This document shows, piece by piece, positions 1,608-63,605 of a stretch of 64,000 nt of DNA. Made by a program: the position numbers and the translations under genes. Origin of the DNA: Escherichia phage vB_EcoM_JS09; sequence record NC_024124.2; one strand, given 5' to 3'. Within the stretch, counting starts at the first letter, position 1, and every line of letters starts with the position of its first letter. The notes beneath the pieces are model-generated. The model ran no database searches, was not told the DNA's origin, and saw only the letters and a program-made list of their open reading frames with translations.

Positions 1608-1910
1608 ATGAAAACATATCAAGAATTTATTACTGAAGCGCGAGTGAGTGCAGGTAAATTAGAAGCCGCTATAAATAAAAAGGCCCATTCATTTCATGAT
1701 TTGTCCGATAAAGACCGTAAGAAACTTGTAAGCCTTTATATTGACAAAGAGCGTATTCTCGCTCTTCCTGGCGCTAATGAAGGTAAACAGGCCAAGCCTT
1801 TGAATGCTGTCGAAAAGAAAATTGATAACTTTGCTTCTAAATTCGGTATGTCTATGGATGACCTTCAGCAAGCGGCTATCGAAGCAGCTAAAGTAATTAA
1901 AGGTAAATAA
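1608..1910 (+). CDS. Internal-protein-like (leader MKTYQEFITEA)
   Basis: Conserved IP-type leader; SD aggaaa; basic lysine-rich product. Confidence 0.6.
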   Translation: MKTYQEFITEARVSAGKLEAAINKKAHSFHDLSDKDRKKLVSLYIDKERILALPGANEGKQAKPLNAVEKKIDNFASKFGMSMDDLQQAAIEAAKVIKGK

Positions 1911-1967
1911 CAGTTTACTTTCTCCTAGAATTGTGATAGTATATTCATAATTACTTGGATGGGTAAA

Positions 1968-2096
1968 ATGACTTATATTAATTTGACTTTAGTATCTAAA
2001 TTTGCTGATCAACATTTAATCGCCGAATACTGTGAATTGCCACGTGTTTTTGGTATAATTCGTAAACACGTGGCAAAAATATTTACATTCAAATAA
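1968..2096 (+). pseudogene. Truncated second copy of denV 5' end (42 codons)
   Basis: [34 protein letters not shown] then diverges and stops; paralogous to 667-780 with its own promoter-like cassette. Confidence 0.6.
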
Positions 2097-2239
2097 AATG
2101 GGAACAACCTGGACCTCATGATTCTATGAGGGATTCCCGCCAACCTGTAATAAGGTCGAGCCCAAGTGCGGTAATGGGTAAATACAGAAATGGACAATTC
2201 ATGCGCCATGGAATGGCCCCCAACCTTAAGAGAAATAAT

Positions 2240-2779
2240 ATGAGAACATTTTTAACTGGACCTTATCTATCCCTGATGAATGCTTTTACACACCATTCTG
2301 ATGCTAGAGTAGAAGAAATTTGTAAGAACGGTTATGCCCCACCATTTGAAGACGTACTCAAGCAGTACTGTACACTTCGTTTAGACGGCGGCAGACAATC
2401 AGGTAAATCGACCGCAGTAACTAATTTTGCTGTTAATTGGCTGTATGACGGTGGAACAGTTATTGTTCTTTCTAATACTTCAGCTTATTCTAAAATTTCT
2501 GCTGGCAACATTGAAAAAGAATTTTCTCGTTATTCTAGCGACGATATTCGATTCCGTTTATTTACTGATTCTGTCCGTAGTTTTATTGGCAATGAAGGTT
2601 CTAAATTCCGTGGATTAACGCTTTCTCGTATTCTGTATATAATTGACGAGCCTATTAAAGCTCCTGATATGGATAAGATTTACAACATACATATTAAAAC
2701 AGTCCAACACTGTTGCAAAAGCAAATATTGCATCGGCGGTATTGCTCGTCCTCAATTTTTTGTGATTGGAATGCAATGA
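2240..2779 (+). CDS. P-loop NTPase-like protein (start uncertain)
   Basis: Walker A GGRQSGKST and Walker B-like ILYIIDEP in ORF 2126-2779; ATG 2240 chosen as first start with weak SD. Confidence 0.4.
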   Translation: MRTFLTGPYLSLMNAFTHHSDARVEEICKNGYAPPFEDVLKQYCTLRLDGGRQSGKSTAVTNFAVNWLYDGGTVIVLSNTSAYSKISAGNIEKEFSRYSSDDIRFRLFTDSVRSFIGNEGSKFRGLTLSRILYIIDEPIKAPDMDKIYNIHIKTVQHCCKSKYCIGGIARPQFFVIGMQ

Positions 2780-3084
2780 TGACCACTATTGAAGTTTTTG
2801 AGTATTGTTATAACAGCCCAGTATGCAATAAAAGGGCTCTTGTAGAAAATTACGAGATCTACCATTTTAAACCTAAACGATATTGTTTGACTAAAGGTCC
2901 GTTCGCAGGTCAGCAGGTTCTTTGTACTGCTCCTAATGCACGGTTGATGACTAGTATTCCGCATTTCAAAATGGAATTTATTGATGGGCCGTTTAAGGGA
3001 TTAATCACTCAAAGTTTAATGGCGTTTAATTCCGTCCCATTTTTGATTAAAGAAAAAACTTGGATAAATTTATTTTCTAATTGA
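2776..3084 (+). CDS. Hypothetical protein
   Basis: ORF in frame with ATGATGA overlap to upstream stop; Cys-containing 102 aa. Confidence 0.35.
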   Translation: MMTTIEVFEYCYNSPVCNKRALVENYEIYHFKPKRYCLTKGPFAGQQVLCTAPNARLMTSIPHFKMEFIDGPFKGLITQSLMAFNSVPFLIKEKTWINLFSN

Positions 3085-3090
3085 GGTTAT

Positions 3091-3453
3091 ATGAAAGCAT
3101 ATCAAATTCTTGAAGGTGCGCATAAAGGCACTATTTATTTTGAAGACGGTACTCAGGCCCGGATTATTGTCTCTAAGACTTTTAAAGAAGACGCTATTGT
3201 AGACCCGGAAATTTTCTACGGTTTGAATGCCCGTGAAATTGAAATTGAACATCAACCTAAAGTTAAAATTGAAGGTGGTCAACACCTGAACGTTAACGTT
3301 CTGCGTCGTGAAACTCTGGAAGATGCAGTTAAGCATCCGGAAAAATATCCTCAGCTGACCATCCGTGTATCCGGTTATGCAGTTCGCTTTAACTCTCTGA
3401 CTCCAGAACAGCAGCGCGACGTTATCGCTCGTACCTTTACTGAGAGTCTATAA
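3091..3453 (+). CDS. Autonomous glycyl-radical cofactor (GrcA/YfiD-like)
   Basis: C-terminal [25 protein letters not shown] is the glycyl-radical signature of PFL/GrcA; T4 is known to encode a YfiD-like protein. Confidence 0.75.
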
Positions 3454-5219: not shown

Positions 5220-5563
5220 CCAAAGTGTTGGCTTTAATAGTTGGCTTGGTTTCATTTAACGCTCTTGCTAATACTACATATACTGATGTAACGGAGTATA
5301 CAAACAGAACGGCGTCTGATTATTGTGGTAAAAGTCAAGAGTGTAAAGTAGATTTTTCACAAAAATTGTTATATGCGTATAAAGACGGAGAAAAAGATGG
5401 GGCGTCTAGTAGGTTCAAGGCGTCTACCTTAATTAAAAGATACTATAAAAAATGGCAAATATTAGAATGCTCGGTGGCGGAACCTAAAGATAAGGCAGCA
5501 TGCAATTCTATGGTGGACCGTCTAGTTGACTCTTATAATAGAGGACTTGCAGCAAGTGATTAA
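5216..5563 (+). CDS. Secreted/periplasmic hypothetical protein
   Basis: N-terminal signal-like MTKVLALIVGLVSFNALA; ATGA overlap with upstream gene. Confidence 0.45.
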   Translation: MTKVLALIVGLVSFNALANTTYTDVTEYTNRTASDYCGKSQECKVDFSQKLLYAYKDGEKDGASSRFKASTLIKRYYKKWQILECSVAEPKDKAACNSMVDRLVDSYNRGLAASD

Positions 5564-6023
5564 AAACTATATCAAGGGCGATATTGTCGCCCTGTTTTCT
5601 AAAGGTAATAATATTGCTCATGGGTGTAATTGTTTTCATACAATGGGCGCCGGTGTAGCAGGCCAATTAGCAAAGGCTTATCCAAAAATTTTAGAAGCCG
5701 ATAAACTTCAAACCGAATTCGGAGACAAGTCTAAACTCGGGACTTATTCGGTTTATGAAAAATATTTTAAGACCCATAAAGCTTATTGCTTTAATCTTTA
5801 TACGCAGTTTGAGCCGGGACCTAATTTTGAGTACTATGCTTTAATGAATTGTATAATAGAATTAAATGAATTCGGAAAGAATAAGATAACAAAGCCTGTA
5901 ATTTATATGCCAAGAATTGGTGCAGGTATCGGTGGCGGAAACTGGGATGTCATCGAAGAGATTTTAGACACATATTCCACTAAACTAGAAATTGTGATTG
6001 TTGATTGGGAACCATTATTATGA
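5556..6023 (+). CDS. Macrodomain protein (TARG1/DarG-like ADP-ribose hydrolase fold); start uncertain
   Basis: HGCNCFHTMGAGVAGQL and MPRIGAGIGGGNWDVI resemble TARG1-type macrodomain motifs; ORF opens at TTG 5526, GTG 5556 chosen after SD gagga. Confidence 0.55.
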   Translation: MIKNYIKGDIVALFSKGNNIAHGCNCFHTMGAGVAGQLAKAYPKILEADKLQTEFGDKSKLGTYSVYEKYFKTHKAYCFNLYTQFEPGPNFEYYALMNCIIELNEFGKNKITKPVIYMPRIGAGIGGGNWDVIEEILDTYSTKLEIVIVDWEPLL

Positions 6024-6232
6024 ATATACATTATCCACATCCATATGACCCAAAGAATAAGGCAGTAATTATTCGTCAATGGGAACGCATTTGTCGTACC
6101 AAATGTCCAATTAATAGTCCACACGATGTAGATAAAGACTACATCGGAACATTCGTTGAATATACCTTTATTGATAAGAAAGGCCGTAAACAACATGTAG
6201 AAGAATATTGCTTAAAGGTGACATGGTTATGA
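6020..6232 (+). CDS. Hypothetical protein
   Basis: 70-aa ORF, ATG overlaps upstream stop (TTATGA). Confidence 0.4.
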   Translation: MNIHYPHPYDPKNKAVIIRQWERICRTKCPINSPHDVDKDYIGTFVEYTFIDKKGRKQHVEEYCLKVTWL

Positions 6233-6435
6233 GTCAAACAAAAATTCTTACAGGTGCTAAATGCGAAAAATGCGAATGGCCTGTAGTTTTTGCTTTATGC
6301 AATGACGAAATGGCTTGTGATTTTGATTATTGGTGTTACTGTTCGAACAAAGGTTGTAGCAATCATAAAGGTGAAGGGTTTTACTCAGGATTTTACCCTT
6401 ACCCGGATTTTGTTAAAGAAGGTGAACCTAAATGA
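6229..6435 (+). CDS. Cys-rich small protein (putative metal-binding)
   Basis: CEKCEW...CNDEMAC...WCYCSNKGC pattern; ATGA overlap. Confidence 0.45.
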   Translation: MSQTKILTGAKCEKCEWPVVFALCNDEMACDFDYWCYCSNKGCSNHKGEGFYSGFYPYPDFVKEGEPK

Positions 6436-6614
6436 AATTAACTAAAGAAGAGAAAGCTAAACTGTTCGAACTTATCCATGACCTATTGGATGAGCAAGCA
6501 GCCACCAATGCGTACGATGAATATGCTCCTTTGACGGATGAAGAATATCAAACATTGTTGGAATCATTTGACAGGAAAGAACAAGAACTCATTGACTACG
6601 TGAATTCACTATAA
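6432..6614 (+). CDS. Hypothetical acidic protein
   Basis: 60-aa ORF with ATGA coupling. Confidence 0.4.
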   Translation: MKLTKEEKAKLFELIHDLLDEQAATNAYDEYAPLTDEEYQTLLESFDRKEQELIDYVNSL

Positions 6615-6623
6615 GGGACTCTT

Positions 6624-7205
6624 ATGGCTAGTTTAATTTTTACATATGCCGCTATGAACGCTGGTAAGTCTGCTTCATTACTTACTGCCGCACATAACTA
6701 TAAAGAACGTGGCATGGGTGTATTAGTTCTTAAACCGGCTATTGATACTCGCGATTCAAAAGGTGAAATAGTCTCTCGTATTGGTATTCGTCAGGACGCC
6801 AATATAATTACAAAAGACATGGATATCTTTGAATTCTATAAATGGGCTGCAGCACAAAAGGATATTCATTGTGTATTTGTTGACGAAGCTCAATTCTTAA
6901 CTACTGAAAAGGTGTATCAACTTAGTCGTATTGTTGACGTATACAATGTGCCGGTAATGGCATATGGACTACGAACAGATTTTAAAGGTAATCTATTTGA
7001 AGGTTCTCAAGCATTAATGGCTATTGCCGATAAGCTTGTTGAACTTAAAGGTGTCTGTCATTGTGGTAAAAAGGCCACAATGGTAGCTAGAGTCACGGAA
7101 GACGGACTTCCAATTACAGATGGCAGTCAAATTGAAATTGGTGATACCGATAGATATGTGTCATTATGCCGGAAGCATTGGAATGATTTGACAGGGTTGT
7201 TATAA
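6624..7205 (+). CDS. tk: Thymidine kinase
   Basis: MASLIFTYAAMNAGKSASLL... P-loop, C-terminal CHCGKKAT zinc motif; matches recalled T4 Tk. Confidence 0.9.
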   Translation: MASLIFTYAAMNAGKSASLLTAAHNYKERGMGVLVLKPAIDTRDSKGEIVSRIGIRQDANIITKDMDIFEFYKWAAAQKDIHCVFVDEAQFLTTEKVYQLSRIVDVYNVPVMAYGLRTDFKGNLFEGSQALMAIADKLVELKGVCHCGKKATMVARVTEDGLPITDGSQIEIGDTDRYVSLCRKHWNDLTGLL

Positions 7206-35730: not shown

Positions 35731-36366
35731 ATGAAAACTACTCCTATTACTATCGCTATTGACGCAATCATAAAACAAGCTTCTTCTTTGGCCGCTATGG
35801 CCAAAGTAATTAGTCAAAACCCTGCTCGTTATAATGCTATTCTAGAAACTCTTCGACGCCCTGGACTTAGTAATTATGAAAGTCGTGTAATTATTACAGG
35901 TGTTGGTAAGAACGCTAATATCGCAACTAAAGCTTCTGAGACATTTGCTTCACTCGGTATCCCGAGTATGTACTTGAACACCGGGCATTATTCTCACGGT
36001 GATGCAGGATTCATTGCGCCTAATGATGTGTTGATTCATATTAGTCGTTCTGGTAAAACTGAAGAAATGATAGGCGTGGCTAAGCATCTTAAAACGATTC
36101 GTCCGAACGTCAAACAGATTCTGTTGCATTGTAACCCAGACATTCCACAAGAAAATGAAGCCCTTTTTGATTACTCTTTCTGTACAGGCATCGCAGTAGA
36201 GGTTGATGAGAATTCTCTGGCTCCGACCATGTCCACTACATTGTTGTTAGCGCTTATCGATACTTTTGCTATCAACCTTTCGTCTGAGCGTGGATTTACC
36301 TCTAATGACTTCCTTAAGTTCCACCCTGGCGGTGCACTAGGTGCCATGTTACGAGGCGAACAATGA
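35731..36366 (+). CDS. SIS-domain sugar-phosphate isomerase (arabinose-5-phosphate-isomerase-like, KdsD/GutQ-type)
   Basis: ITGVGKNANIATKASETFASLGIPS...HGDAGFIAPNDVLIHISRSGKTEE...LAPTMSTT...HPGGALGAM mirrors the KdsD/GutQ SIS domain; no CBS domains. Confidence 0.75.
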   Translation: MKTTPITIAIDAIIKQASSLAAMAKVISQNPARYNAILETLRRPGLSNYESRVIITGVGKNANIATKASETFASLGIPSMYLNTGHYSHGDAGFIAPNDVLIHISRSGKTEEMIGVAKHLKTIRPNVKQILLHCNPDIPQENEALFDYSFCTGIAVEVDENSLAPTMSTTLLLALIDTFAINLSSERGFTSNDFLKFHPGGALGAMLRGEQ

Positions 36367-36547: not shown

Positions 36548-38233
36548 ATGAAAAAAGCTGTTATTCTTGGTGCTGGACTGGCAACTCGTTTGTATCCAAT
36601 AACGCATCATATTCCTAAGGTGCTTGTTAACTATAAACAAGACACTATTCTGAGCAATTTGTATACAATTTATTCTGACCTTGGTGCAGATGAAATTATT
36701 GTAGTAGTTCATTCAAAATTTGCTGAAACTGTTCGAGCTTATTGTGAGCAAGAAGGGTTCAATGTGACTATTCGTACAGTTGATGAAGCATATGGTTCTG
36801 CTTATGCTCTTGCTAAATTACACAAAGATTTAGACGGCCATAATGTAATTGTTAACTGGTGTGATATTATTCCTGATTTTGGTTCATGGTCTTGGAATGT
36901 TAACGCAATCTATGTTAAGGGTGACGAATGTCGATATAATTTCGACGGTGAAAATATCACTAACGTAGGTTCAACAGGTGGTAATGTTGTAGGAATTTAT
37001 CAGTTCAAAGACTGGGAATTCTATATGGGTTCTACTGATGAGGAAATTCATGAATACTGCAAAGGACGTGATTTCGTAGAATTCCTTTACGGCAGCGCAT
37101 TCAATAAATCAGAGCTTATGAATCTAATTGATTTAGGTGATATGCCTAAACTTGAAAAAGCTCATGAAGTTCGTGAACTTAATCGTAGTTTTAATGCAGT
37201 TGAAATTGGTGAAGAAACTGTAACTAAATTCGCATTAACCGAACAGGGCCGAGCTCTTCAGAAAGATGAGATTTCATGGTATCTTAAAGTGAAATCAGAT
37301 TCAGTTCCTCAGTTAGTTTCTGTTAATGAAAATAACTTTGAAATGGAACGCATTAAAGGTAAGCCGGCATTTGAATATATTAAATCCAAATCGAGTCTTG
37401 CTCGTCCACAAATTGTTGATGCAATTTTAGACGCACTGAAATTCAGCACAGACACTTATTTTGTAAGTCCTGAAACTGTTCGTCGTGATTTCACTAAAGA
37501 ATTCTATACGAAAGTTATTGATCGTTGTGAAAGCATTCAACCATTGATTGATTCATTTGGTAAAATCACACATGTGAACTACACTAAGATTGGACGTCTG
37601 AAGCCAATGTTGAAACAAGCTTTAGAACACCTTATTCGTTATCATAACCGTTCTCAGGGACAGTACTCTGTTATTCATGGCGACCCGAACTTCAGTAATA
37701 CTATGATTACTGATAATGGTGAAGTCAAGTTTATCGACCCTCGCGGATATTTTGGCGAAACCAAGATTTATGGGCCAAAATTGTATGATGAAGCTAAAGT
37801 GCTTTATGCTGTTTCAGGTTATGATGAATTCAACGCTAATCCGACCTGGGGACAGTTTACTATTGATGAAACAACTTGTAATGTGACTATTAACATCAAT
37901 CCATTAGTTTACAAATATGGAAAGATGAGTTCGTTTAACGAGTATCATCATTTGGCTGTAGCAATTATCTGGATTGCATTAGGTGGTTATTTCAAGAATA
38001 ATCCACTTAAAGCGGTAGCCGCATATTATAAAGGTATGGAACTTCTGACTAAGCAATTACGTAACATGGGCCGTGTACTTCAGGACGGCTCTATTAGTTA
38101 TGACGTAGCAGAACCTGTAACGGCTACTCTGATTACAAAAAATCCTGGTAAATGGGTACTAACTGATAAAGAAACTGGTGTTTCCTATCGTCCAATCGGT
38201 GGCGATATCACTCATCAATGGGAACGAATCTAA
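36548..38233 (+). CDS. Bifunctional sugar-1-phosphate nucleotidyltransferase / kinase-like protein
   Basis: N-terminus MKKAVILGAGLATRLYPITHHIPKVLV is NTP-transferase-like; C-terminus VIHGDPNFSNTMITDNGEVKFIDPRGYFG resembles the APH/choline-kinase catalytic loop. Confidence 0.65.
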   Translation: MKKAVILGAGLATRLYPITHHIPKVLVNYKQDTILSNLYTIYSDLGADEIIVVVHSKFAETVRAYCEQEGFNVTIRTVDEAYGSAYALAKLHKDLDGHNVIVNWCDIIPDFGSWSWNVNAIYVKGDECRYNFDGENITNVGSTGGNVVGIYQFKDWEFYMGSTDEEIHEYCKGRDFVEFLYGSAFNKSELMNLIDLGDMPKLEKAHEVRELNRSFNAVEIGEETVTKFALTEQGRALQKDEISWYLKVKSDSVPQLVSVNENNFEMERIKGKPAFEYIKSKSSLARPQIVDAILDALKFSTDTYFVSPETVRRDFTKEFYTKVIDRCESIQPLIDSFGKITHVNYTKIGRLKPMLKQALEHLIRYHNRSQGQYSVIHGDPNFSNTMITDNGEVKFIDPRGYFGETKIYGPKLYDEAKVLYAVSGYDEFNANPTWGQFTIDETTCNVTININPLVYKYGKMSSFNEYHHLAVAIIWIALGGYFKNNPLKAVAAYYKGMELLTKQLRNMGRVLQDGSISYDVAEPVTATLITKNPGKWVLTDKETGVSYRPIGGDITHQWERI

Positions 38234-38619
38234 TGCACCGTGTAGAAAACATGCTTAATCTTTGTTTTGATGTCGATGATTGTATAACAGAGTGGAATAA
38301 CAATCGTGATTACGTGAACTTCAAACCAGACGTCGAAATGGTGACTGCCATTAATGCCCTGTATGATGCAGGGCATACAATAACGCTTTACACTGCTCGC
38401 GGTATGAAGTCAGTCGGTCCTGGTCGTATAGCAATTGACATTCTCCCAAGTCTGATTCAGAACTTGGCAAACATTGGATTGAAGTACCATAATTTGCTAA
38501 CACATAAACCAGTATATGATTGGATTATCGACGACAAAGCTATGCGTCCTGACGAATTCAAAGCTCTTATGAATAAAGGCGAATTCGAAACATTTAAATC
38601 ATATAAACCGAATCTATAA
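38233..38619 (+). CDS. HAD-superfamily phosphatase
   Basis: Motif I LCFDVDDCIT, motif II TLYTARG, motif III K...IIDDKA; TAATG coupling to upstream gene. Confidence 0.6.
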   Translation: MHRVENMLNLCFDVDDCITEWNNNRDYVNFKPDVEMVTAINALYDAGHTITLYTARGMKSVGPGRIAIDILPSLIQNLANIGLKYHNLLTHKPVYDWIIDDKAMRPDEFKALMNKGEFETFKSYKPNL

Positions 38620-38673: not shown

Positions 38674-39834
38674 ATGAATACCTTTAAAATCGGAACGAAT
38701 TTTGATTTAGCTCTTCTTGATAAAATCGTAGAGCTCAATAAAACTTATCCTAATAGCTTGATAAACGAAGTATACGGCTCTACAAGAGAAATGGCTTTTG
38801 TAGCAGCCAGACCTGATTTTAGGCTTCCTGACGTTGACAAAAAGATGTTAGAAGATTACGTTAAACGTTGTAACGAATTAGGTATTTGCTTTAACTATAC
38901 ACTCAACACGATAAATCCTGGTTCAAAAAGAGAACTAGTTGAGTGGAAGAAGAAAGCTATTCAGGATTATGTTCAGTATCTTTGGTCAATAGGCGTATGG
39001 CGTATTACTATCGCTAACCCTGTTGTTATGGAAATTGTTCGTGAAGTCAATAAAGACATTGAGATTGAAGTTTCAACAATTCTACATGTCGATGCTGTAA
39101 CTCAAATCAAATACTTGCATGACCAGTATAATATCAAAAAGGTCTGCTGTGGAATTCATAAGAACCGTTCAGTTTCTTTCCTGAAGCGTGCAGCAGAGTT
39201 TTGCAATAAGAACAATATAATATTTGAAGTTCTTGTAAATGAGTTCTGTTCTAATGCTGGTAAAGGGTATACAACACATTGTAGCTATCGTGACTCTTGC
39301 TATATTTTCCATAGTACTGATGTTACAGCTGATGATGCTAAATCCTTAAACGGATATCCTATGCAGCACTGTATTAAAGCTCGTGATACAGACCCATTTA
39401 ACTGGTTGAGAACTCGTTTTGTTCGCCCCCAAGATTTGAAACTTTATAATGATATTGGTATCACTCAATTTAAAGTTTCGGGACGTACAGGTAGCACCGA
39501 CTACATTTTGAAAGTTCTTGAAGCTTATGCTTCTGAAAAGTTTGAAGGTAATTTGTTGGAATTGTGGAAGCCTTTAGAGACCATTTTCACTCTTGAAAAT
39601 GAGACAGAGTTTTCACATACAGTAAATATTGAAACCTCTTTGTTAGATGGCTTTTTAGAAAAAAGGTGGTTCAGACATCCAGATTTCGATTGTGCTAATG
39701 AAATCTGCGGGACGACGTGTACATATTGTGAAAGATATTATAAACGTCAATTATCTAAAAACGGGTTAGCAGAAAACTCTATATCTATTATTGATATAAC
39801 TAACTCTGATGACGCTTTGAGGTACCCGGAATGA
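38674..39834 (+). CDS. Peptidase-U32-family protein (UbiU/RlhA/TrhP-like putative Fe-S enzyme)
   Basis: N-terminus IGTNFDLALLDKIV...EVYGSTREMAFVAARPDF, NPVVMEIVREVNKDIEIEVST and Cys cluster EVLVNEFCSNAGKGYTTHCSYRDSCY parallel U32 hallmarks. Confidence 0.6.
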   Translation: MNTFKIGTNFDLALLDKIVELNKTYPNSLINEVYGSTREMAFVAARPDFRLPDVDKKMLEDYVKRCNELGICFNYTLNTINPGSKRELVEWKKKAIQDYVQYLWSIGVWRITIANPVVMEIVREVNKDIEIEVSTILHVDAVTQIKYLHDQYNIKKVCCGIHKNRSVSFLKRAAEFCNKNNIIFEVLVNEFCSNAGKGYTTHCSYRDSCYIFHSTDVTADDAKSLNGYPMQHCIKARDTDPFNWLRTRFVRPQDLKLYNDIGITQFKVSGRTGSTDYILKVLEAYASEKFEGNLLELWKPLETIFTLENETEFSHTVNIETSLLDGFLEKRWFRHPDFDCANEICGTTCTYCERYYKRQLSKNGLAENSISIIDITNSDDALRYPE

Positions 39835-39992
39835 TTTCTAGAAAAACTTTTAACCACCAACTTAACGAAGAGATTTTGACTATGAAACTGAACACTAATG
39901 AACAAATTCTTAAAAAGGCCCTGATGGGCCTGTTTGAAACTAAAGCGGCTAAAGTGATTAAAGAAACCTGTTCAATTGGAATACTACGCTGA
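39831..39992 (+). CDS. Small hypothetical protein (53 aa)
   Basis: ATGA overlap with U32 gene; not in track. Confidence 0.3.
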   Translation: MISRKTFNHQLNEEILTMKLNTNEQILKKALMGLFETKAAKVIKETCSIGILR

Positions 39993-40113: not shown

Positions 40114-40830
40114 ATGGGAAAACATAACACAATGAAATATATCAAAGCCGCAGATTTTCAAACCGCATTTAAAGCAGTCAATCGTGAAATTTTAGAAAAC
40201 CCGGAATTCGTAACTGATTCTCGTATTGGACGTTGTAATGAAATTGGGTCTATGACAGTAGTTGTTGACACTCCATCATCATTCAAAATGACCGACCCAC
40301 GTATTAACCGCATCTCTTATGAATATGCCGAAGACTTCTGGAAGTTTATGATTTCTGGTGGTACCAACGCAGAAGAAGCGTTTAAGGCATATCCTAATGT
40401 CGCTAAATTTATTTCTAAACCAAAATCAGATGTTTTGCCGGCGAACTTCAACACTTTCTATGGTCCTCGCATTGCGGCCCAATTACCAGCTCTTCTAAAA
40501 GAACTTAAAGAGAAGCCTAACTCCCGAAGAGTTGTGTTCCAAATTCTAGAAAGTTCTGATCAGGCTTTGCTTGATTCAGACGAAACGCTTGAATATCCAT
40601 GTACTGACTCAGTGACTTATTATATTCGTGATGGTAAGCTTTATACCCACTGTCATATGCGTTCTCAGAACTGTGCTGTTGTTATGCAGTTGGATTTTTA
40701 TCTCCAAGGAAAATTACTTCATTATATCGCTAACGAATGTGGTGTAGAAGTTGGTGATTATACTCATACCATGGTAAGTGCCCATGTGTTTGAACGTGAT
40801 TTTGATTATGTTAAAGGATTCCTTGACTAA
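40114..40830 (+). CDS. 42: Thymidylate-synthase-fold pyrimidine hydroxymethylase (dCMP hydroxymethylase-like, divergent)
   Basis: Active-site-like EYPCTD, SRRVVFQI and MRSQNCAVVMQLDF segments; occupies gene 42 position between 43 and uvsX. Confidence 0.65.
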   Translation: MGKHNTMKYIKAADFQTAFKAVNREILENPEFVTDSRIGRCNEIGSMTVVVDTPSSFKMTDPRINRISYEYAEDFWKFMISGGTNAEEAFKAYPNVAKFISKPKSDVLPANFNTFYGPRIAAQLPALLKELKEKPNSRRVVFQILESSDQALLDSDETLEYPCTDSVTYYIRDGKLYTHCHMRSQNCAVVMQLDFYLQGKLLHYIANECGVEVGDYTHTMVSAHVFERDFDYVKGFLD

Positions 40831-41729
40831 TGGCTATTTTCCGCGTACCTATTTTGAGTATGCGGTCTTATGAAACTGGACAGTATGCTATCCTTAAGGA
40901 TGGCAACTTCCAACTTCATTTGCACCGTGCTAATCCAGGTGATGTGATTACATATCCACGTAATGCATCTGATATTAAAGAATGCGAACGTCTTTTTCCG
41001 GAATTTAAGTTTGTTCCATTATGGTATAAAGATAACGCGTATAACACTCGTAAATATTTCTGGTCTGAAAATGAATTTGTGGTTGATTCATTAATTGCTT
41101 ATTATGATTGTGATTTTCTAATCACAGATATCACTGGATATGATGGCGCTTTTGACGTAGAATTCAATTTCAATATCACTGCAGACCCTAATAAACCACG
41201 TTTTTATATTGATGAATTCTTAAAAACCGACATGTTGTCTGTTAATCGTTCACTTCAAACTACTGTGTTGAATGAACGTCAAAAAGAAGTGCTGGTTAAC
41301 GCAGGTGCAGATGGTAATAAGATTATCGTAACACAGAAAGTTATACGTCCTTCCGTCATGCAGCGTCTTGTAGGTGATTTGGCTCCTATTCATCTAGATG
41401 GTATTTTTCATCCATTTCGAATTAGTGACCCATGCTATCGTTTTGAACAAGTGGTTGAATGCGCAATTCAATTAGGTCAACCGCTTTATATAACTGATCC
41501 AAATAATAGTTTCGACAGAAATAAGTATCCTGAAGAAGCGCTGATTCGAATTTTTAATCCAACTAAAACTGAGTACTATCAAATTCTTAAAGGACGTCCG
41601 AAGATTCAATATTTCGAAAATCCTGAAGAAGTATTCCATCCAGGTCTTGGTGAGTTCATCTACTTTAATGCTTTAATTTCTTCGCCGTATAATATACCTA
41701 AATACGAAGATGTCGTAATCGAGGAATAA
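40830..41729 (+). CDS. Hypothetical protein at the T4 beta-glucosyltransferase locus
   Basis: 299 aa; TAATG coupling to gene 42; no resemblance to recalled T4 beta-gt. Confidence 0.5.
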   Translation: MAIFRVPILSMRSYETGQYAILKDGNFQLHLHRANPGDVITYPRNASDIKECERLFPEFKFVPLWYKDNAYNTRKYFWSENEFVVDSLIAYYDCDFLITDITGYDGAFDVEFNFNITADPNKPRFYIDEFLKTDMLSVNRSLQTTVLNERQKEVLVNAGADGNKIIVTQKVIRPSVMQRLVGDLAPIHLDGIFHPFRISDPCYRFEQVVECAIQLGQPLYITDPNNSFDRNKYPEEALIRIFNPTKTEYYQILKGRPKIQYFENPEEVFHPGLGEFIYFNALISSPYNIPKYEDVVIEE

Positions 41730-41730
41730 A

Positions 41731-42279
41731 ATGGCTAAAATTATTTTAGTAGATGGCCCGGATAATGCCGGTAAAACAACTTTCATTAATGACATAATGG
41801 AAATTAGTGAAAGATATGTAAAGATTGATTTCCCTAAACGAACAGTTGATGGACGTTTCGATGTTAAGTCTCGAAATGAAGTTGGCTGTTTCGAAACGAT
41901 GTTGAATTATTTAGACCCTACTAAGATTTATCTGTTAGACCGTGGATATATTAGTAACTGGGTTTATGGACGTATTCGACAAGATGTGGACTCGGTTCTT
42001 GACGTTTATGAACAGGATTATGTTCGTCTTTGCCAAAACCATGATGTGTTCACAATTATTTTAACACGTAACGAAATGACTGAAAGTTTTGAAGACGACC
42101 TTATTACTTTGTCTTCATTCGGTTTTAATACAGTCATTTCATATTTTGAAGAGTTTGCAATTCATAACAAAATCCAAACGTATCAATTACTTAATCATGA
42201 CGGTGCTAACAAAGTTATAGGATTTAATGCAAGCGAACGTAATTATTTGATTACAGAAATTATCAAATGGGCTCGTTAA
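41731..42279 (+). CDS. P-loop kinase-like protein
   Basis: Walker A VDGPDNAGKTT at N-terminus, 182 aa, NMP/sugar-kinase-like size; SD gagga. Confidence 0.5.
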   Translation: MAKIILVDGPDNAGKTTFINDIMEISERYVKIDFPKRTVDGRFDVKSRNEVGCFETMLNYLDPTKIYLLDRGYISNWVYGRIRQDVDSVLDVYEQDYVRLCQNHDVFTIILTRNEMTESFEDDLITLSSFGFNTVISYFEEFAIHNKIQTYQLLNHDGANKVIGFNASERNYLITEIIKWAR

Positions 42280-42301
42280 GAGCCTGTTTAAAGTTTTTAA
42301 A

Positions 42302-42379: not shown

Positions 42380-43552
42380 ATGTCTGATTTAAAATCTCGT
42401 CTGATTAAAGCTTCTACTTCTAAAATGACTGCAGACTTGACTAAGTCTAAGCTGTTTAATAATCGTGATGAAGTCCCTACTCGTATTCCGATGTTGAATA
42501 TTGCATTAGGTGGTGCACTGAATGCAGGGTTGCAATCAGGCTTAACTATTTTTGCTGCTCCTTCTAAACACTTTAAAACGTTGTTTGGACTAACTATGGT
42601 TGCAGCATATATGAAGAAATATAAAGATGCAATCTGTTTGTTTTATGACTCAGAATTCGGTGCTTCAGAATCTTATTTTCGTTCAATGGGTGTTGATTTA
42701 GACCGTGTAGTTCATACGCCAATTCAGTCCGTCGAACAACTTAAAGTTGATATGACTAATCAGCTTGACGCGATTGAACGCGGTGATAAAGTTATTATCT
42801 TTATCGATTCAATCGGTAATACTGCATCTAAGAAAGAAACCGAAGATGCGTTGAACGAGAAAGTTGTAGGTGATATGTCTCGTGCTAAGGCACTTAAATC
42901 TCTTTTCCGTATTGTGACTCCTTATCTGACTATTAAAGATATTCCGTGTGTTGCAATTAACCATACCGCAATGGAAATTGGTGGATTGTATCCTAAAGAG
43001 ATTATGGGCGGTGGTACAGGTATTCTTTATTCTGCCAACACGGTATTTTTTATCTCTAAACGTCAGGTTAAAGAAGGTACAGAATTGACCGGTTATGACT
43101 TCACGTTGAAAGCAGAAAAATCTCGCACCGTTAAAGAAAAATCTACTTTCCCAATCACGGTTAATTTTGATGGTGGTATCGACCCATTCAGCGGCTTGCT
43201 AGAAATGGCAACCGAAATTGGTTTTGTAGTTAAGCCTAAAGCCGGTTGGTATGCTCGTGAATTCCTTGACGAAGAAACAGGTGAAATGATTCGTGAAGAG
43301 AAATCGTGGCGTGCTAAAGCTACTGATTGTGTAGAATTCTGGGGACCTTTGTTTAAACACAAACCTTTCCGAGATGCAATTGAAACTAAATATAAACTAG
43401 GTGCTATCTCTTCTATTAAAGAAGTTGATGATGCTGTTAACGACCTTATTAATTGCAAAGCAACAACTAAAGTTCCGGTTAAAACTTCTGATGCTCCGTC
43501 TGCAGCAGATATAGAAAACGACCTTGACGAAATGGAAGATTTCGATGAATAA
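42380..43552 (+). CDS. uvsX: Recombinase UvsX (RecA-like)
   Basis: MSDLKSRLIKASTSK... near-identical in pattern to recalled T4 UvsX; acidic C-terminus. Confidence 0.95.
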   Translation: MSDLKSRLIKASTSKMTADLTKSKLFNNRDEVPTRIPMLNIALGGALNAGLQSGLTIFAAPSKHFKTLFGLTMVAAYMKKYKDAICLFYDSEFGASESYFRSMGVDLDRVVHTPIQSVEQLKVDMTNQLDAIERGDKVIIFIDSIGNTASKKETEDALNEKVVGDMSRAKALKSLFRIVTPYLTIKDIPCVAINHTAMEIGGLYPKEIMGGGTGILYSANTVFFISKRQVKEGTELTGYDFTLKAEKSRTVKEKSTFPITVNFDGGIDPFSGLLEMATEIGFVVKPKAGWYAREFLDEETGEMIREEKSWRAKATDCVEFWGPLFKHKPFRDAIETKYKLGAISSIKEVDDAVNDLINCKATTKVPVKTSDAPSAADIENDLDEMEDFDE

Positions 43553-62504: not shown

Positions 62505-63605
62505 ATGAAAGTTATGTTTATCCCATCTCGTGCAGTCCCATTTAATCCTGACCGTGTACAAGGTGGTCTTGAAGCAGTACATTTAAATGTGTTGAAATAT
62601 CTTGTGTCCATCGGTGCTGATATTGATTATATCGGTTTTGATAATGACACATTTGGTGATTGGAAGGTTAATCATCATCCTGTTGGTCATCTGACTAAAT
62701 TCAGTCTAGGTATGAGTTATACTATGGCTCGTAAGATTGTTGAACTAGCCGGCATCCATGAATACGATTTTGTTGTTACTATGGAACCGACTAAACTAAC
62801 CGTTCAGGCAATTAAAGACGCAGGTCTCTCTAAAGTTCATAAGAATTTTATGGCAACACCATTTGAACCGGTATCTCGTGGCATTGTTCAAATTTGGGAC
62901 CAGACTATTCAAATTCATAAGAATGGTGGTAAGAGTTATGCTCCTACTAAAGCCTTCCGTGAATTTGAACGCAAATATTGTTATATGACTTCAGGTTTGA
63001 CTGACAAAATTGATTACGATTATTGGCGAGCAAATCCGTTGTTTGAAGCCGAAGATTATCCGGTTATTTGTTTGAATGAGAAACCTGAAGTTCTTCCGGC
63101 GACGGATCTGATTATTAGTGCACAACGTTATGACACTAAAATGCGTCGTACTGATGTTGCTCTTGAAGCGATTAAAGCACTAGGCGAAAATGGTGCAGGA
63201 TACTGTCCAAGCAAATGGGCGCCACCAGCTAAATATCCTGTTATTATTGATGCTCCACACAGTGAAATCATGGAACGTCTTAAAACAGCTAAAGCACTTA
63301 TTAATACGTGTCCTGACACAGGTACGGTAGAGAATAGTTCTATTGAAGCCATCTCTAAAGGTGTCCCTGTAATCCAGTTAGTTTTTAAGGATTATCCTCA
63401 TGCGACATTTGAATACGACCCAGATACTGTGCGTGTAGAAATTGATTCCTCTACTCCTAAGAAAGAAGTAGTTGCGCTTTACACAAAAGCTGTATTAGAA
63501 TTCACTGACACATACGAAGCTCGAGTTAAACGTGCTGAAGCAGTATGGAAGAAGTATAATCGAGATGCAGTTGTTGCGATGTGGGATAAAATCTTCACAG
63601 CGTAA
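62505..63605 (+). CDS. GT-B-fold glycosyltransferase-like protein (candidate DNA sugar transferase)
   Basis: N-terminal MKVMFIPS...GGLEAV and C-terminal TVENSSIEAISKGVPVIQL resemble GT-B donor-binding motifs; lies where T4 carries gene 60/mobA. Confidence 0.55.
   Translation: MKVMFIPSRAVPFNPDRVQGGLEAVHLNVLKYLVSIGADIDYIGFDNDTFGDWKVNHHPVGHLTKFSLGMSYTMARKIVELAGIHEYDFVVTMEPTKLTVQAIKDAGLSKVHKNFMATPFEPVSRGIVQIWDQTIQIHKNGGKSYAPTKAFREFERKYCYMTSGLTDKIDYDYWRANPLFEAEDYPVICLNEKPEVLPATDLIISAQRYDTKMRRTDVALEAIKALGENGAGYCPSKWAPPAKYPVIIDAPHSEIMERLKTAKALINTCPDTGTVENSSIEAISKGVPVIQLVFKDYPHATFEYDPDTVRVEIDSSTPKKEVVALYTKAVLEFTDTYEARVKRAEAVWKKYNRDAVVAMWDKIFTA

Follow-up and report, generated by a model that had tools for sequence, protein, structure and literature searches.

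Cytosine is replaced in the DNA of phage RB69 and of Acinetobacter phage DLP3 by mono- or poly-arabinosylated 5-hydroxycytosine, in which the sugar is ether-linked to C5, and the arabinosyl-5-hydroxycytosine (ara-5hoC) pathway has been mapped to the RB69 gp45-gp55 region (PMC13326640). In this region, the thymidylate synthase (TS) homolog gp48 is a flavin-associated protein that was shown experimentally to turn dCMP into 5-hydroxy-dCMP (5hodCMP) with O2 (Lee et al., NAR 2026, PMC13326640); gp46:47 and gp45 were assigned as "arabinosyltransferase 1" and "nucleotide kinase", their orthologues in DLP3 being gp79 and gp78, respectively, and the later arabinoses are added on DNA (PMC13326640). A Mosigvirus phage of the Durham collection carries the same DNA modification, and an eight-gene module had been noted by Thomas et al. 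(2018), who proposed only ORF003c as a transferase. The present work concerns two adjoining open reading frames (ORFs) of 299 and 182 amino acids in Escherichia phage vB_EcoM_JS09 (NC_024124.2), of which a stretch of 64,000 nucleotides, hereafter the window, was analysed. We are fairly confident that these two ORFs encode the transferase and the kinase of the known ara-5hoC hypermodification pathway of RB69-like phages, a reading supported by orthology and common synteny, by the published work on RB69, DLP3 and HY126, by the hydroxylase signature of the upstream gene, by the conservation of the module and by coupled start and stop codons together with a downstream hairpin. The locus is real and has already been described in papers of 2025-2026; what is new here is that hydroxylase, transferase and kinase travel together independently of the sugar, as a portable three-gene core.

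The 299-aa ORF (40830-41729, + strand) is flanked on its 5' side by the TS homolog (40114-40830, + strand) and on its 3' side by the 182-aa Walker-A ORF (41731-42279, + strand), whose product starts with MAKIILVDGPDNAGKTT, and uvsX follows at 42380-43552 (Pfam T4_UVSX_C, E 1e-38). A preliminary description of this DNA had located both ORFs between gene 42 and uvsX, at the position held by the beta-glucosyltransferase gene (beta-gt) in T4, and the ORF list confirms these coordinates; the T4 order on which it relied is also borne out by NC_000866, where beta-gt and segA fill the corresponding interval (42 - beta-gt - segA - uvsX). Likewise, the coupling of the 299-aa ORF to the gene upstream is found as announced, one base being common to the stop codon of the TS homolog and the ATG of the transferase (TAATG, within gacTAATGgct), and the 182-aa ORF starts one base past the 299-aa stop (TAAaATG). 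A terminator-like hairpin (42265-42289, + strand), composed of a ten-pair stem and then a T-rich tail, overlaps the kinase stop codon and would mark the end of the unit formed by hydroxylase, transferase and kinase, upstream of uvsX. Over the 2.4 kb that surround the locus, the sequence is 98-99% identical to about 150 Escherichia/Shigella phages of the RB69 type (Mosigvirus), and the order 43 - isomerase - bifunctional enzyme - HAD - U32 - TS homolog - transferase - kinase - uvsX is identical in RB69; the window is that of a Mosigvirus (RB69-like) phage. Because homologs of both ORFs, at 24-100% identity, occur in about 345 phage records, with others in metagenomes, they are real genes and not chance ORFs. 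Neither gene is covered by essentiality data in a phage Tn-seq preprint. The 299-aa protein, presented at first as unknown, is the product published as RB69 gp46:47, the kinase being gp45 (PMC13326640), and the comparison with RB69-like phages that had been advised returned orthologues in the same gene order: 98.7% identity over 299 aa to RB69ORF047c plus ORF046c, matched in two pieces and with identical flanking genes, while the 182-aa protein is the counterpart of RB69ORF045c and is 97-99% identical to its Mosigvirus relatives. The two pieces arise from the RB69 GenBank record, which splits ORF053c/052c and ORF047c/046c, each pair corresponding to a single intact ORF in the window (36548-38233 and 40830-41729, against 1718-3404 and 6001-6901 in locus L001); that both are intact here favours the explanation already given in the literature, in which sequencing errors split the RB69 genes.

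The upstream gene had been taken for gene 42. Its sequence identifies it instead as a predicted flavin-dependent dCMP 5-hydroxylase (5hodCMP synthase), the orthologue of RB69 gp48: the product matches Pfam Thymidylat_synt (E 2e-15) and, far more closely, PDB 9iqc/9ir2 (E 8e-161, about 98% identity by mismatch count in the alignment), it retains the catalytic Cys together with the motifs MRSQN...LD and LEYPC, and it carries the signature D169N, N177D, L143E (E. coli ThyA numbering). These positions were read from a MAFFT alignment with E. coli ThyA, T4 gp42 and Thanatos TH1_062, given that BLASTP against E. coli ThyA introduces a two-residue gap that shifts them, which the alignment including T4 gp42 resolves. 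A dCMP hydroxymethylase of the T4 gp42 type was considered and is ruled out by Asn in place of Asp at ThyA position 169 and by an identity of only 25% to T4 gp42. As the upstream enzyme would produce 5-hydroxy-dCMP, the chemistry of the locus is expected to bear on 5-hydroxycytosine and not on hydroxymethyl-dCMP (hm-dCMP).

Structure prediction, the check that had been recommended in search of a glycosyltransferase fold, gave for the 299-aa protein a GT-B architecture with two Rossmann-like domains and an inter-domain cleft. Its top structural match, 6kih, is the one published for the orthologue, and its best matches are enzymes with small phosphorylated acceptors; T4 beta-gt is absent from the top 60. 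The lack of resemblance to beta-gt claimed beforehand holds at the sequence level (BLASTP E 3.6; hhalign probability 0.1%), and when the profile of the transferase family was compared by hhalign with the sequences of T4 alpha-gt, T4 beta-gt and RB69 gp3, no match emerged, only the fold comparison being informative. No Pfam or NCBIfam family was matched, Glycos_transf_1 and Glyco_trans_4 included, nor did a PDB sequence search with the protein or its profile find a match. In the C-terminal half of the family, R197, K246 and H270-P271-G272 are invariant, and the first Glu of a would-be EX7E-type motif (E267-x7-E275) is not conserved. On its modelled structure, the 299-aa protein is thus best described as a minimal, highly diverged GT-B glycosyltransferase, which matches the published assignment independently, and its predicted role is to attach the base-proximal arabinofuranose at O5 of 5-hydroxycytosine.

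The 182-aa protein has the predicted fold of a nucleoside monophosphate (NMP) kinase, closest to thymidylate kinase (TMPK). Among 28 homologs, the motifs GPDNAGKTT, FPKR and DRGYIS show little or no variation, and they align to those of the vaccinia and yeast TMPKs and of the human enzyme; the third position of the DR[YHF] motif is Gly, which departs from the TMPK motif. Since the gene is genetically tied to a dCMP 5-hydroxylase, the enzyme probably acts on a 5-substituted dCMP and not on dTMP. A role as a kinase of DNA bases, in the manner of the 5-hmdU DNA kinases, is unlikely, the NMP-binding motifs of TMPK being kept.

The association of these genes was followed in 56 IMG/VR loci holding a relative of the transferase and in four others, searched with profiles of each cluster protein. 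A TMPK-like kinase belongs to the same locus in 55 of the 57 informative cases, mostly adjoining and co-directional with the transferase. TS homolog, transferase and kinase are contiguous in 28 loci; the order becomes kinase-TS-transferase in six (Dhakavirus), and the kinase gene of Klebsiella and Proteus phages lies 2 kb upstream, beside the HAD gene. Nine strictly contiguous trios, on non-T4-like contigs, come without any arabinose-activation gene, and the Pootjesviridae-like loci L061-L064 keep a TS-transferase-TMPK-like arrangement that matches the published order of Rhizobium phage RL38J1. This linkage, which extends to loci devoid of arabinose-activation genes, ties the kinase to the base-modifying enzyme and to the transferase and not to the sugar; it therefore argues against the pentose-kinase option raised in the preliminary description, whose proposal, a transferase and a kinase working together on the modified nucleotide or sugar, is supported for the nucleotide (GT-B fold, TMPK-like fold, linkage) and is not favoured for the sugar. 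A sugar-kinase role is all the more unlikely since the cluster possesses its own sugar kinase. Two loci, L056 and L058, have no kinase nearby. In L058, a UDP-galactopyranose mutase gene (5248-6201; Pfam GLF E 6e-34) adjoins the transferase on its 3' side, which suggests a galactofuranose donor. In L056, the transferase makes up the C-terminal portion of a protein of 551 aa (5452-7107), whose N-terminus opens with a DxD start (LILDFDG) suggestive of a HAD-type domain, no Pfam family being found for this N-terminal part.

All seven members of the ara-5hoC set are present in the window, namely isomerase, bifunctional enzyme, HAD phosphatase, 5hodCMP synthase, first transferase, kinase and second GT4 enzyme. 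The arabinose-5-phosphate isomerase (35731-36366, + strand; RB69 gp55) matches NCBIfam KpsF/GutQ (E 1e-32) and KdsD (E 7e-31). It is followed by the bifunctional sugar-1-phosphate nucleotidyltransferase/kinase (36548-38233, + strand; RB69 gp52:53), which matches Pfam NTP_transferase (E 9e-10) with weak APH/kinase matches, and by a HAD-type phosphatase (38218-38619, + strand; RB69 gp51) related to an NCBIfam capsule biosynthesis phosphatase (E 5e-13). These two are the analogues of AfhE and AfhF: in the published account, the former has a role in making UDP-arabinofuranose (UDP-Araf), the latter is an arabinose-1,5-bisphosphate 5-phosphatase, and UDP-Araf synthesis is shown for the HY126 orthologues (PMC13326640). 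The second, GT4-type arabinosyltransferase, which handles the distal arabinose, lies some 20 kb away from the main cluster (62505-63605, + strand; E 8e-250 to PDB 9iqz) and is 99.7% identical to RB69 gp3; the solved HY126 enzyme is an orthologue of this protein and not of the 299-aa one. The phage probably makes di-arabinosylated 5-hydroxycytosine, like RB69. Between the U32 gene and the hydroxylase, a small ORF (39831-39992) encodes 53 aa, against 79 aa for RB69ORF049c, owing to an early stop in frame.

The accessory member of the cluster, a Peptidase-U32-family protein (38674-39834, + strand; RB69 gp50; Pfam Peptidase_U32 E 7e-11, PHROG 5757 E 5e-267), has been called "sugar or heterocycle reductase" in published work and is not shared by all lineages; within the locus set, it occurs in phages of facultative anaerobes and is missing from Dhakavirus and from the phages of Acinetobacter and Pseudomonas. 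In three metagenomic loci, U32 homologs (E ~1e-113) stand directly downstream of the transferase (L055 5466-8051, L057 4301-6865, L060 5439-7973), with a TMPK-like kinase upstream and no TS homolog within 6 kb, so that U32 occupies there the usual place of the hydroxylase. U32 proteins include O2-independent hydroxylases such as TrhP, RlhA and UbiU/V. It is tempting to suggest that U32 may provide an anaerobic route to 5-hydroxycytosine, and a full-text literature search brought up no paper in which U32, phage and 5-hydroxycytosine are connected. A Flavodoxin_2 (FMN-reductase-like) gene was also observed directly upstream of the 5hodCMP-synthase homolog on a 122-kb phage contig (L008 6739-7293), and another within about 6 kb of such a homolog on a 356-kb contig (L007 1-523); the protein may be a flavin-reducing partner of the flavin-dependent hydroxylase. 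The cluster in the window is without this gene.

One fair scenario is as follows. The TS homolog would hydroxylate dCMP at C5 with flavin and O2, as the RB69 orthologue does according to the literature, and the 182-aa kinase would phosphorylate a non-canonical pyrimidine deoxynucleoside monophosphate (dNMP), most likely 5-hydroxy-dCMP, towards the triphosphate pool used by the replisome. Isomerase, bifunctional kinase/uridylyltransferase and HAD phosphatase would make UDP-Araf, as shown for the HY126 orthologues (PMC13326640). The 299-aa GT-B enzyme would then use UDP-Araf to place the first arabinofuranose on the 5-hydroxyl of the base, as suggested by its fold, its synteny and the single such transferase of the mono-arabinosylated phage Thanatos, and the gp3-type GT4 enzyme would add the second arabinose. 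By analogy with the T4 paradigm, it seems somewhat more plausible than the reverse that the first transfer takes place on 5-hydroxycytosine already in DNA; a transfer to the free nucleotide is possible and clearly less favoured, and other arrangements account for the remainder. The simplest reading would be a self-sufficient mobile module, made of the hydroxylase, its own NMP kinase and the first transferase, the latter acting on DNA as in T4.

Several points weigh against the assignment of the pair to this pathway. DLP3 gp79, supplied with UDP-Araf or UDP-arabinopyranose (UDP-Arap), did not arabinosylate 5-hydroxycytosine-containing DNA (5hoC-DNA; data not shown in that paper), no activity of the individual DLP3 transferases on 5hoC-DNA is reported, and RB69 gp159, the dNMP kinase of the T4 gp1 type, phosphorylates 5hodCMP in vitro (PMC13326640), which makes a second 5hodCMP kinase look redundant in T4-like phages. 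In the literature surveyed, no biochemical activity is reported for the transferase family as such, and the report on Thanatos TH1_063, the His-tagged orthologue of the 299-aa protein, describes the formation of UDP-xylose from UTP and xylose-1-phosphate. Finally, the kinase has no PF02223 match at E<=0.1 and scores 16 bits on TIGR00041 for a cutoff of 83; being below both thresholds, it is called here TMPK-like and not a dTMP kinase in the sense of these families.

The apparent redundancy is addressed by a pre-replicative route, which we hold to be rather doubtful although it survives best among the alternatives. The 299-aa transferase would arabinosylate free 5hodCMP, the 182-aa kinase would be dedicated to arabinosyl-5hodCMP, too bulky on this proposal for a gp1-type kinase, and the polymerase would incorporate the glycosylated dCTP. 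Transferase and kinase are almost inseparable in at least four phage lineages, including the loci where U32 replaces the TS-type hydroxylase, and a second kinase in T4-like phages that already have one for 5hodCMP suggests a second non-canonical dNMP. The inactivity of the DLP3 orthologue on 5hoC-DNA would be explained, and the authors themselves state that they cannot distinguish a first arabinosylation at the nucleotide level from one at the DNA level (PMC13326640). The family is also acidic (median isoelectric point (pI) 5.1, against 9.05 for T4 beta-gt), and the enzymes closest to it in structure have small phosphorylated acceptors. However, charge is weak evidence: pI and net charge were tried as a proxy for DNA versus small-molecule acceptors and dropped because the DNA-acting T4 alpha-gt (pI 6.1) and the DLP1 GT4 enzyme DLP1_075 (5.7) overlap the transferase family. 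Moreover, all characterised phage DNA glycosylation is post-replicative, DLP3 gp76/77 acting on DNA, and 5hodC is readily incorporated into the DNA of E. coli with the hydroxylase and a gp1-type kinase alone (PMC13326640), so that unglycosylated 5-hydroxycytosine would enter DNA anyway. The linkage itself is explained without this route by a self-sufficient mobile module with its own kinase. Were the pre-replicative route true, it would be the first pre-replicative glycosylation of a nucleotide in a virus, the DNA being built directly from sugar-bearing dCTP.

An ordinary dTMP kinase, which would boost dTTP and be linked to the modification genes by position only, appears an unlikely identity for the 182-aa protein. 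The TMPK fold and motifs, and the "thymidylate kinase" annotation found in many phage records, speak for it; yet the gene stays beside the transferase and hydroxylase through permutations of gene order and in unrelated phage lineages, its score is far from the equivalog cutoff, and Gly replaces the aromatic residue of DRY/H/F. Besides, a T4-type gp1 already covers dTMP. Still less credible is the view that the 299-aa protein activates the sugar as a UDP-pentose pyrophosphorylase, as reported for TH1_063, which is 47.5% identical to it: the UDP-xylose formed in vitro would fit, but the fold is GT-B and not that of a nucleotidyltransferase, the cluster already has a nucleotidyltransferase domain, whose orthologue in HY126 possesses the activity, the protein is kept in loci without sugar-activation genes, and contamination by a host uridylyltransferase does not seem to be excluded in the TH1_063 report as consulted. 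As for a novel beta-gt substitute acting on hm-dCMP or hydroxymethylcytosine (hmC), the literal version of the preliminary description, the shared chromosomal position and the GT-B fold common to both proteins speak for it, yet it has practically no credit given the nature of the upstream hydroxylase.

The locus thus belongs to a recently solved anti-restriction and anti-CRISPR hypermodification, and annotations would gain from being revised: the Mosigvirus-type "gene 42" should not be named dCMP hydroxymethylase, the downstream "hypothetical protein" would be a glycosyltransferase and the "thymidylate kinase" a putative pathway-specific nucleotide kinase. That hydroxylase, transferase and kinase are linked almost everywhere makes the retention of a second nucleotide kinase a more pointed question. 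In comparison with the Pootjesviridae phage RL38J1, whose gp216-215-214 module underlies hexosylated 5-hydroxycytosine, the order hydroxylase - transferase - TMPK-like kinase is the same; the RL38J1 sugars are galactose and glucose, its transferase is 24-28% identical and arabinose-activation genes are absent there. With the type I (eukaryote/poxvirus-like) TMPKs, e.g. vaccinia 2v54, the kinase shares the fold, the P-loop [DE]GxDxxGK[ST]T, FPxR and DRxxxS, and it differs by a shorter length (182 aa), DRG for DRY/H/F, scores under the family thresholds and its tie to a dCMP 5-hydroxylase. T4 beta-gt and alpha-gt resemble the transferase by the GT-B fold, by the use of a UDP-sugar to modify a C5-hydroxylated cytosine against restriction and, for beta-gt, by a locus between a TS homolog and uvsX; unlike them, it has no sequence similarity to either, counts 299 aa instead of 351 and 400, is acidic and not basic, and would use UDP-arabinofuranose as donor and the 5-OH of 5-hydroxycytosine, in place of the CH2OH of hmC, as acceptor. 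With RB69 gp46:47 and gp45, and with DLP3 gp79 and gp78, the two proteins share orthology, gene order, predicted folds and the top structural match 6kih, and nothing substantive separates the window from RB69 apart from a transferase ORF that is intact here and split by a frameshift in the RB69 GenBank record.

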